Source of the DNA: Candidatus Thorarchaeota archaeon
Lineage (GTDB): Archaea; Asgardarchaeota; Thorarchaeia; Thorarchaeales; Thorarchaeaceae
NCBI GenBank assembly: GCA_019057475.1
Contig: DXJO01000047.1
Coordinates: 1 to 21,954, forward strand
DNA: 21,954 nucleotides
Direction: 5' to 3'
The position numbers and the translations under genes are program-made. Below the pieces are notes generated by a model that searched no databases, was not told the origin of the DNA, and worked only from the letters and a program-made list of their open reading frames with translations. Of this stretch, positions 356 to 17,709 are shown in pieces (the stretch's first letter is position 1; each line of letters starts with the position of its first letter).

Positions 356-425
356 GGTTATGCACCCTAATCTATCGGGCGTGAGAATCCCATTAAGGCG
401 GATAAGATGACCACGGTGCATAACC
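356..425. repeat. 11-bp perfect inverted repeat enclosing 48 bp
   Basis: GGTTATGCACC (356-366) and GGTGCATAACC (415-425). Inner ATCTATC/GATAAGAT can extend the stem with one bulge. Confidence 0.8.
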
Positions 426-647: not shown

Positions 648-737
648 ACTTACAAACCCATTGAAGGCGGACTGCGAGATTCACACAGTCAATCAGAATA
701 ATGGGAGTATAAGTGGTTAAAGGGAGGGTTTGTAAGT
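648..737 (+). ncRNA. Candidate structured RNA or ssDNA hairpin, unit 1 of a tandem pair
   Basis: Outer arms ACTTACAAACCC (648-659) and GGGTTTGTAAGT (726-737). Inner stems CCCATTG/TAATGGG (657-663/699-705) and GACTG/CAGTC (670-674/686-690). Covaries with unit 2. The repeat is certain; RNA status and strand are inferred. Confidence 0.5.
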
Positions 738-760
738 AGTGTGTGCGTTTAGCCAAATCA

Positions 761-853
761 GACTTCCGAACCCTTTGATGGCCGACTGCGAGAATCACAC
801 AGTTAACCAGAATAAAGGGAAGTATAAGTGAATAACGGGAGGGTTCGGAAGTC
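761..853 (+). ncRNA. Candidate structured RNA or ssDNA hairpin, unit 2 of a tandem pair
   Basis: Outer arms GACTTCCGAACCC (761-773) and GGGTTCGGAAGTC (841-853). Inner stems CCCTTTG/TAAAGGG (771-777/813-819) and GACTG/CAGTT. 76 of 91 aligned columns are identical to unit 1 by manual alignment. Confidence 0.5.
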
Positions 854-2990: not shown

Positions 2991-3037
2991 GCATTCAAAG
3001 TAGGGGTGTAGAACTGTATTGCCTGTTTTAAGGTCCG

Positions 3038-14505: not shown

Positions 14506-14601
14506 GAGATTCTAAGGGAGGGCCTTACAGCCCATCTTCAGAAACTAGTTGCGCTTAGATGCATCTGAAGTTGACCTCCGCTCTTGTTTCATTGGACTCC
14601 T
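14506..14601 (-). pseudogene. Decayed duplicate of the actin 3' end (last 15 codons) and its terminator hairpin
   Basis: Aligns with 16524-16616 (offset 2015 in the coding part). Reads ESNETRAEVNFRCI* versus actin [14 protein letters not shown]. 53 of 62 columns are identical across 14506-14567. Confidence 0.85.
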
Positions 14602-16513: not shown

Positions 16514-16555
16514 AGAAAAAGAAGAGATTCGAAGGGGGCTTTGCAGCCCACCTTC
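16514..16555 (-). terminator. Hairpin with GNRA loop plus U-rich tract after actin
   Basis: GAAGG-T-GGGCT[GCAA]AGCCC-CCTTC followed by TCTCTTCTTTTTCT, 14 nt after the actin stop. Confidence 0.7.
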
Positions 16556-16569
16556 AGAAACTAATTGCA

Positions 16570-17709
16570 CTAGATGCATCTGTGGATGACTTCAGGGCCT
16601 GCCTCATCGAACTCCTTGCGGCTGACCCACATCTTCTGGAAAGTCTTCAGTGAAGCAAGGATGCTTCCACCAATCCAGACTGAGTATTGCCTCTCAGGAG
16701 GAGCAATGATGCGAACCTCGACGTTCTCTGGGACTAGCTCGGTGATCTCCTTGTGGAGCCTCTCCTTGAGTCCTGGGAACATGGTGGAGCCACCTGACAA
16801 CACAATGTTCGCGTACAGGTCACGTCTCAAGTCGACGTCACATGCCTTGATTGAGCCAAAGATGTGTTCGTCGAGTGGCTTCGTGTCCAAGCCAATGGCG
16901 CTCGGGTTGAAGAACAACTCGGGAGCCTGGAAGCGCTCTGCACCAATGGTGATTACATCACCGTCTGGGAGCATGTATGGCTTGTCAACGCCTGCCTTGT
17001 CTGCAACTGTCCTCTCACGTTCAGGGTCGAGGGCAACGTAGCAGAGTTTCTCCTTGATGTCTCGAACAATCTCCTTCTCTGCACCGCTGACAAAGGTGTA
17101 ACCTCTTTGTCTGAGCAATCTGCGCAGATACTCGGTGACGTCGCGGCCTGCAAGATCGATTCTCGCGATGGCATGTGAGATAGCAAAGCCCTCGTAGATT
17201 GGGACTATGTGTGTCACACCATCACCAGAGTCGATGACCAGACCAGTTGTCCGACCTGATGCGTATAGTGATAGCACTGCCTGTGTTGCGACATACACTG
17301 CGGGTACTCCGAAGTTGTCGAACATGACAGATGCCATTCGTTCTCTGTTTTCTCTGGGGTTGAATGGCGCCTCGGTAAGAAGCACTGGGTTCTCGCTGGG
17401 GTCTATCTTGAGATCGTTATAGAATGTGTAACTCCATATCTTCTCGATAGCATCCCAGTCATCGATCACACCATGCTCGATTGGGTATACCAAACGTAGA
17501 ACACCACGCAGGTTGATAGCCTCTTCACCAATGTAGTAATCGCGCGTGTAGTGGTCGACGTCTGTCATAATCGACTCGTATCGCGGATAACCAATTAGTG
17601 TGGGCCAAACACTTCGTGGCTGATCTTCGCCGGCATAACCATTCTTACTGAGACCTGTGCCATTATCAATGACAACAGGTTTCGCGCCAAGAAATTCGTC
17701 TTCAGCCAT
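16570..17709 (-). CDS. Eukaryote-like Asgard actin (Lokiactin-type), 379 aa
   Basis: Motifs [63 protein letters not shown] and [26 protein letters not shown] before ATG 17709. Confidence 0.98.

Follow-up and report, generated by a model that had tools for sequence, protein, structure and literature searches.

A narrow family of stem-loop units in the non-coding tracts of an Asgard integrative element

Two similar units of about 90 nt stand in tandem near one end of a contig of a Candidatus Thorarchaeota archaeon, next to the operon of a tyrosine integrase, and they raise the question of what such hairpins do for the element that carries them. Hardly anything has been described of the signals by which Asgard mobile elements replicate and process their DNA. 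As sites of priming or cutting, the units would provide a compact in vitro system (primase-helicase, nuclease, RHH protein, att sites and 70-90-nt substrates) from which an Asgard replicon or integration vector might be developed; as RNAs, they would represent an undescribed RNA family. The stretch of DNA that we analysed (the window, 21,954 nt) is a whole contig, C27, from a genome with actin and gelsolin genes. The window also holds the 3' end of the actin gene as a diverged direct repeat (14520-14601 and 16536-16616), whose copies are 2 kb apart with two genes between them.

A longer assembly that covers both contigs joins contig C4 to the left end of the window, so that the non-coding tract has a length of about 1.3 kb and is bounded by a small RHH-like gene remnant on one side and by the stop of an integrase/orfB/orfA operon on the other. 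Read on the + strand, it comprises tandem short repeats of the TTCACA/TTAACA class (1-220), which run on into C4 up to the RHH gene remnant; a short-type unit (356-425) with perfect 11-bp arms, the motifs GAGAATC and TAAGATG and a fold z of -3.8; a leader with repeats (477-565), homologous to the leader upstream of a unit in locus L062; and an array of ~11-bp direct repeats carrying TATAAG (521-637), the last copy of which lies 23 nt before unit u1. This unit (648-737) has perfect 12-bp arms around a conserved interior, and u2 (about 761-853) has perfect 14-bp arms around the same interior. The stump of a third unit (~855-862) ends where the orfA 3' end joins, and in other strains a full unit continues at this position (loose ends at 862 in X2 and X3). 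The operon lies on the - strand, its orfA stop (865-867) 11-12 bp from the end of u2. It consists of orfA (865-1473), which encodes an orphan protein of 188 aa as called with 26-31% identity to genes of the related elements C51 and L028; orfB (1382-1663, 93 aa), with a weak HTH match below the cut-off; and the integrase gene (1665-2936, 423 aa, PF00589). Several fragments of related elements, namely integrase 3' ends, ParB, primases and tracts, are found on C4, C11, C17, C20, C24, C28 and C51 of the source genome.

Recounting the differences between u1 and u2 confirmed 14 substitutions and one indel, including three double changes (columns 5/87, 7/85 and 13/55) and two G-C/G-U swaps on the + strand (columns 43 and 46), with the remaining changes unpaired. 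Random placement of 14 substitutions yields at least three compensatory pairs and no broken pair with P ~1e-5, and the outer stem alone, which was not fitted, gives P ~2e-4 under random placement. Both units were far more stable than shuffles (z -3.1 to -5.4), and they folded equally on the + and - strands. One of the double changes had been assigned to a nested stem (CCCATTG/TAATGGG versus CCCTTTG/TAAAGGG). The double change is present, but the nested stem conflicts with the outer one: its CCC is also used by the outer stem, for the final three pairs there, and the stems as drawn cannot form at the same time. Moreover, the nested stem has a pairing probability of 0.00-0.10 in ensembles, and four of its seven pairs are broken in a third copy, the homolog at L062:7330-7420. 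Since comparable pairings can be drawn in the u-type units of L061 and C51, it may form as an alternative state. The leader at 477-565, which the original prediction had tentatively offered as a weaker third copy, is not a unit: it folds weakly (z -1.0/-1.9) and does not align significantly to u1 and u2 locally (110/500 and 36/500 shuffles); its global alignment (3/500 and 1/500 shuffles) arises via shared TATAAG motifs. Two family members that had gone unlisted are the unit at 356-425 and the stump at ~855-862.

How far does the family extend? We found 12 long-armed hairpins in non-coding tracts of the source genome and homologs in other sediment metagenomes, where further copies were reached by following the RHH gene. 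Perfect inverted arms of at least 11 bp occur 55 times genome-wide, and 11 of these cases cluster on C27, C4, C17, C20 and C51 in related non-coding tracts that together span 5.5 kb, or 0.17% of the genome. The units form three subtypes: u-type (in this genome u1, u2 and a decayed copy at C51:7297-7371), C17-type (three copies) and short-type (window 356-425 and five others). Outside the genome, L062:7330-7420 is a u-type copy (model R1, E 2e-12), L061:4714-4783 is a u-type homolog (0/500 shuffles), and short units occur in L034, L061, L063 and L062. The arms of the L062 u-type unit share 10 of 11 positions with C17-type arms, the L061 unit combines C17-type arms with a u-type interior, and the short type resembles u1 more weakly (4/500 shuffles). 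Units measure 65-93 bp, with arms of 10-16 bp and arm-to-arm spacers of 43-67 nt. Contigs of four other studies contain many diverged copies with differing flanks, variable spacers and module deletions at short repeats; tandem copies occur in other strains, and the spacers between units run from ~2 to 30+ nt. Every homolog seen has a single orientation, all units facing the same way relative to the operon. In one sediment copy (L062:6753-6840), tandem duplication has given two GATAATC and three TAAGTCG motifs in the interior, while the 12-bp arms are still perfect.

Searches with BLAST and the models R1, R2 and R3 did not find the family in 86 other genomes of the class or in 150 sampled genomes of the phylum, many of them incomplete, the R2 scan giving two weak matches. 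DNA patterns matched viral, metagenome and GTDB collections at chance-looking sites alone (L043-L050), no viral contig was hit in integrase and primase scans, and Atlas searches scored 0.8 or less throughout. The original prediction had recognised no known RNA family, and Rfam 15 likewise gave no match on the units at E<=5 and none in the sister tracts at E<=1. We conclude that the units are a real, undescribed and narrow family of stem-loops in an Asgard integrative element, of limited generality, since the other Asgard GTDB genomes searched yielded no copy.

The original prediction held that selection acts on the fold. Outer-arm pairing is indeed kept across homologs: in five aligned u-type homologs, 6 of the 11 pairs of the outer stem (11-12 bp) change on both sides, against 0/500 shuffles and far lower values in slid controls, although this is not a formal probability because the sequences are few and related. 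One arm position shows four pair types when C17-type units are included. Template switching could, however, produce the same result unselected, and the pattern does not tell RNA from DNA. The arms are almost pure Watson-Crick (132 pairs versus 2 internal G-T, a ratio biased by how arms were picked), and in the homologous units of C51 and L028 the fold is no longer significant (z -0.35 and +0.56).

Inside the arms, sequence is better kept than pairing. The motifs GGC.GACTGCGA, CACAC, GTATAAG and TAA.GGGAG recur, while the inner helices break or shift register between copies, which argues that the 3'-side bulge, previously suggested to be a variable specificity loop, is instead a conserved motif: GTATAAG and a purine-rich tail are kept in u1, u2, the L062 u-type unit and a metagenome variant. 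The bulge matched no target, its longest genome matches of 12-14 nt being at chance level. We also discarded guide-RNA arrays (CRISPR, bridge-RNA or TIGR-like) in view of the conserved bulge, the irregular spacers between units and the chance-level genome matches. Eight copies of TATAAG, all on one strand, are present in the tract, some within hairpins and some outside them, compared with a background of 0.067/kb. As the equivalent repeats in L061 read GGGAGGTRAAAT, these repeats are not simply TATA boxes. The tRNA leaders of the genome carry (C/T)TTA(A/T)-type boxes, no useful TATA consensus came out of crude ORF starts across the genome, and a sigma-70 promoter scan has no bearing on an archaeal host.

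Related elements, pieced together from C51, L028, L061 and L034 with no single contig holding every part intact, reveal a common gene order: integrase, primase-helicase (D5-type or AEP), small genes, an orfA homolog, a 61-aa gene, a u-type unit with repeats and a conserved leader, a PD-(D/E)XK-like gene, a short-type tract and a convergent RHH gene. Units thus lie on either side of the putative nuclease gene, whose assignment reflects a PD-(D/E)XK-like motif (model pLDDT 62; weak fold matches, HincII E>0.7, VIA Z<=6.1). The primase-helicase is D5_N plus DUF5906 in L028 and L029 and AEP-TOTE in C51, and D5 homologs are present on C17, C24 and C51. In the window, the three-gene module has no primase-helicase; the nuclease gene is missing and the two tracts are fused, as in L062. 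L034, the most intact relative, has a short-type unit alone, with imperfect arms and z -1.4/-2.1. Beside its repeat tract, it encodes a 709-aa protein (L034:12529-14658) that joins a Walker A/B ATPase to a PD-(D/E)XK-like part at the C-terminus; a Zot-like lead is weak (score 0.76), the predicted fold of the ATPase part has a pLDDT of 38, and membrane and secreted Ig-like genes lie nearby. These genes raise the possibility that the L034 element is virus-like or conjugative. Ahead of the nuclease gene, the conserved leader contains several GCCCA motifs (L011:7300-7460 for C51, and the L028 equivalent); GCCCA is a mark of strand breaks in some pleolipoviruses.

Taken together, direct repeats in one orientation, a neighbouring RHH gene, a primase-helicase and long stems whose arms can vary make up the ingredients of known origins, and we therefore favour, at a probability of roughly 45%, the reading that the units may be cis-acting DNA stem-loop sites in a replication or processing tract of Asgard integrative elements, comparable to the origins of pRN1 or RSF1010. 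Element proteins would bind the direct repeats and interior motifs, the duplex would open, and the arms would snap back into a hairpin or cruciform whose held-open interior could serve as a start point of priming, in the manner of pRN1 and RSF1010 origins, or of nuclease cutting. The copy in the window would then represent a derivative in which the nuclease gene was lost, the two tracts fused and u1 and u2 arose by local tandem duplication. We count for this reading the outer-stem covariation, the clustering of arms in tracts and their Watson-Crick purity, the equal fold on both strands, the one-strand TATAAG repeats, the register-shifting inner helices and the primase-helicases of the relatives. 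Against it stand one-sided changes that are mostly G-U on the + strand and fit RNA too, a tract kilobases from the primase gene (~5 kb in L034, 2-3.5 kb in C51), the lost fold in C51 and L028, the weak unit of L034 and a nuclease assignment drawn from motifs, with weak fold matches; against an origin in particular, GC skew along a relative is dominated by coding bias. By eye, host ORB-like boxes near orc1/cdc6 showed no resemblance to the units. Non-coding DNA ahead of the replication genes is conserved at a second place (L028:2240-2579 and L029:2555-2857), which could be a rival candidate origin or promoter. Hairpins at L029:6542-6604 and L028:4210-4262 have differing arms and an identical 31-nt spacer and stop immediately short of a small gene located ahead of the primase; their 3' arm contains a Shine-Dalgarno-like sequence, which suggests translational control of the replication operon.

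Among known systems, the units would most plausibly work like a stem-loop origin of the pRN1/RSF1010 type. The origin of pRN1 requires a 100-nt stem-loop that is conserved in structure rather than sequence, lies 54 bp behind its gene and works when moved, and this family of Sulfolobus plasmids encodes the RHH repressor orf56 and the prim-pol/SF3 helicase ORF904 (PMC4234260). Likewise, the Asgard elements are archaeal, combine an RHH gene with a primase-helicase of prim-pol/SF3 type (in L028/L029 and C51) and have long stem-loops, with GTG/CAC in the interior as in pRN1. Structure may be kept more than arm sequence in these stem-loops, to judge from the covarying outer stem; in two homologs, however, the fold is gone, and the interior conserves its sequence. 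In contrast to the single pRN1 stem-loop, directly downstream of the rep gene and without iterons, the Asgard units are several, of three subtypes, set among repeat arrays and placed beside a putative nuclease gene. The oriV of RSF1010 combines iterons with the hairpins ssiA and ssiB, which are primed by RepB' (summarised in PMC4234260). The Asgard tracts similarly combine direct-repeat arrays with hairpins, and the element family includes an AEP-type primase. While ssiA and ssiB are ~40 nt long and face opposite ways, the Asgard units are 65-93 nt long and all face one way. Compared by description, the small Asgard integrative element Yucahu-i (PMC11529989) likewise has a tyrosine integrase, an att core of ~10-11 bp, small DNA-binding proteins and a nuclease, but a search of the paper for the words 'hairpin' and 'inverted repeat' returned neither. 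Aloposons of Heimdallarchaeum, also Asgard integrative elements, have tandem genes for 3000-6000 aa and a tRNA integration site (PMC8813620), whereas the loci that we read have no giant ORF and the att site no tRNA target.

The units could alternatively be small structured RNAs transcribed from the + strand, antisense to the integrase operon, with the closing stem presenting a conserved protein-binding interior. The fixed orientation, a TATA-like motif 21-23 nt upstream (in three strains, TATAAG ahead of the first unit) and a modest excess of G-U on the + strand make this reading plausible, though we hold it to be somewhat unlikely. The + strand reads G-U both at the sole u-type outer-stem wobble and at four one-sided changes farther in, and it gives C17-type units a much better fold; tandem units with variable spacers occur in other strains. 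However, the strand bias comes from few sites (~1 in 16 by chance for four), the inner helices do not keep their register and the nested stem is disrupted, the upstream motif, missing ahead of most short-type units, does not resemble a TATA box in L061, and no T-tract follows the units on +. Besides the empty Rfam comparison, complementarity to element leaders, att or the genome did not exceed chance: 3 of 120 pairing tests of unit interiors against primase leaders, att and the integrase leader fell below z -2, as expected by chance. By eye, no H/ACA, C/D-box or SECIS motifs were seen. A role for such RNAs in regulating or neutralising an element protein, such as the nuclease, as an antitoxin-like or copy-control RNA, is, jointly with the small-RNA reading, likewise on the doubtful side. 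That they are a new class of structured RNAs, antisense on both sides of the PD-(D/E)XK-like nuclease gene and amplified into arrays, which would serve this nuclease as RNA partner or antitoxin, seems to us quite improbable.

The paired arms might also be a by-product of a hot spot of slippage and template switching that makes inverted arms uniform and multiplies modules, with the interior motifs alone under selection as duplex DNA, either protein-binding sites or promoters. In the course of template switching, arms of 7-16 bp separated by up to 70 nt become homogenised (PMC8604942), and the arms of the units fall in this range. The tracts are mosaics of tandem duplications and of deletions at short repeats; the nearly pure Watson-Crick arms and the decayed folds in the C51 and L028 u-type units fit as well. 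Yet spacers of 43-67 nt lie at the long, less favoured end (PMC8604942), the arms stay at 10-16 bp and anchored on an ACCC/GGGT core across subtypes with no random extension, and a T-G wobble persists inside the L062 stem. We regard this explanation as unlikely.

Do the units serve the integrase itself? They were proposed to be folded single-stranded recombination sites analogous to attC, or invertible promoter cassettes, and for either we see very little likelihood. The neighbouring tyrosine integrase, the attC-like size range, the tandem imperfect hairpins with variable spacers, the single genes flanked by units in C17 and L061 and AAC/GTT within the arms would fit. However, the arms lack the R''/R' consensus ends of attC (RYYYAAC ... 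GTTRRRY), the integrase homologs of 88% and 79% identity have no unit beside their gene, and the integrase uses an ordinary att core. The 10-bp attL core GTATTGCCTG lies at 3016-3025, just downstream of the stop of host trmB; position 3016 of the window is where allelic variants from other metagenomes connect to it, the core is repeated at G000:C11:18230 with the flank of these variants (attR), and L029, the 79%-identical relative, carries the two element-side arms joined as an attP-type junction. Together, attL, attR, the empty site and the attP-type junction show that the element integrates behind trmB in the usual site-specific manner. From this core it is 2.2 kb into the element to the units, which do not contain it. 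Invertible cassettes find no support in view of the uniform orientation of all homologs seen, the recurrence outside units of the promoter-like motif that they enclose, and its L061 version, which is not TATA-like; no inversion joints were listed in four contig sets, in which contigs show presence, not absence. Miniature inverted-repeat transposable elements, finally, are extremely improbable: the size of 65-93 bp, terminal inverted repeats of 10-16 bp and several copies per genome agree, but the flanks show no target-site duplication, copies are confined to element tracts and arms differ between copies. The element between attL and attR is spread over contigs that are not joined. The integrase-side att arm contains ACACCCC (window 3002-3013), which recurs three to four times in several tracts (L061:2473-2880; L012, L011); these repeats are possibly sites for one element protein.
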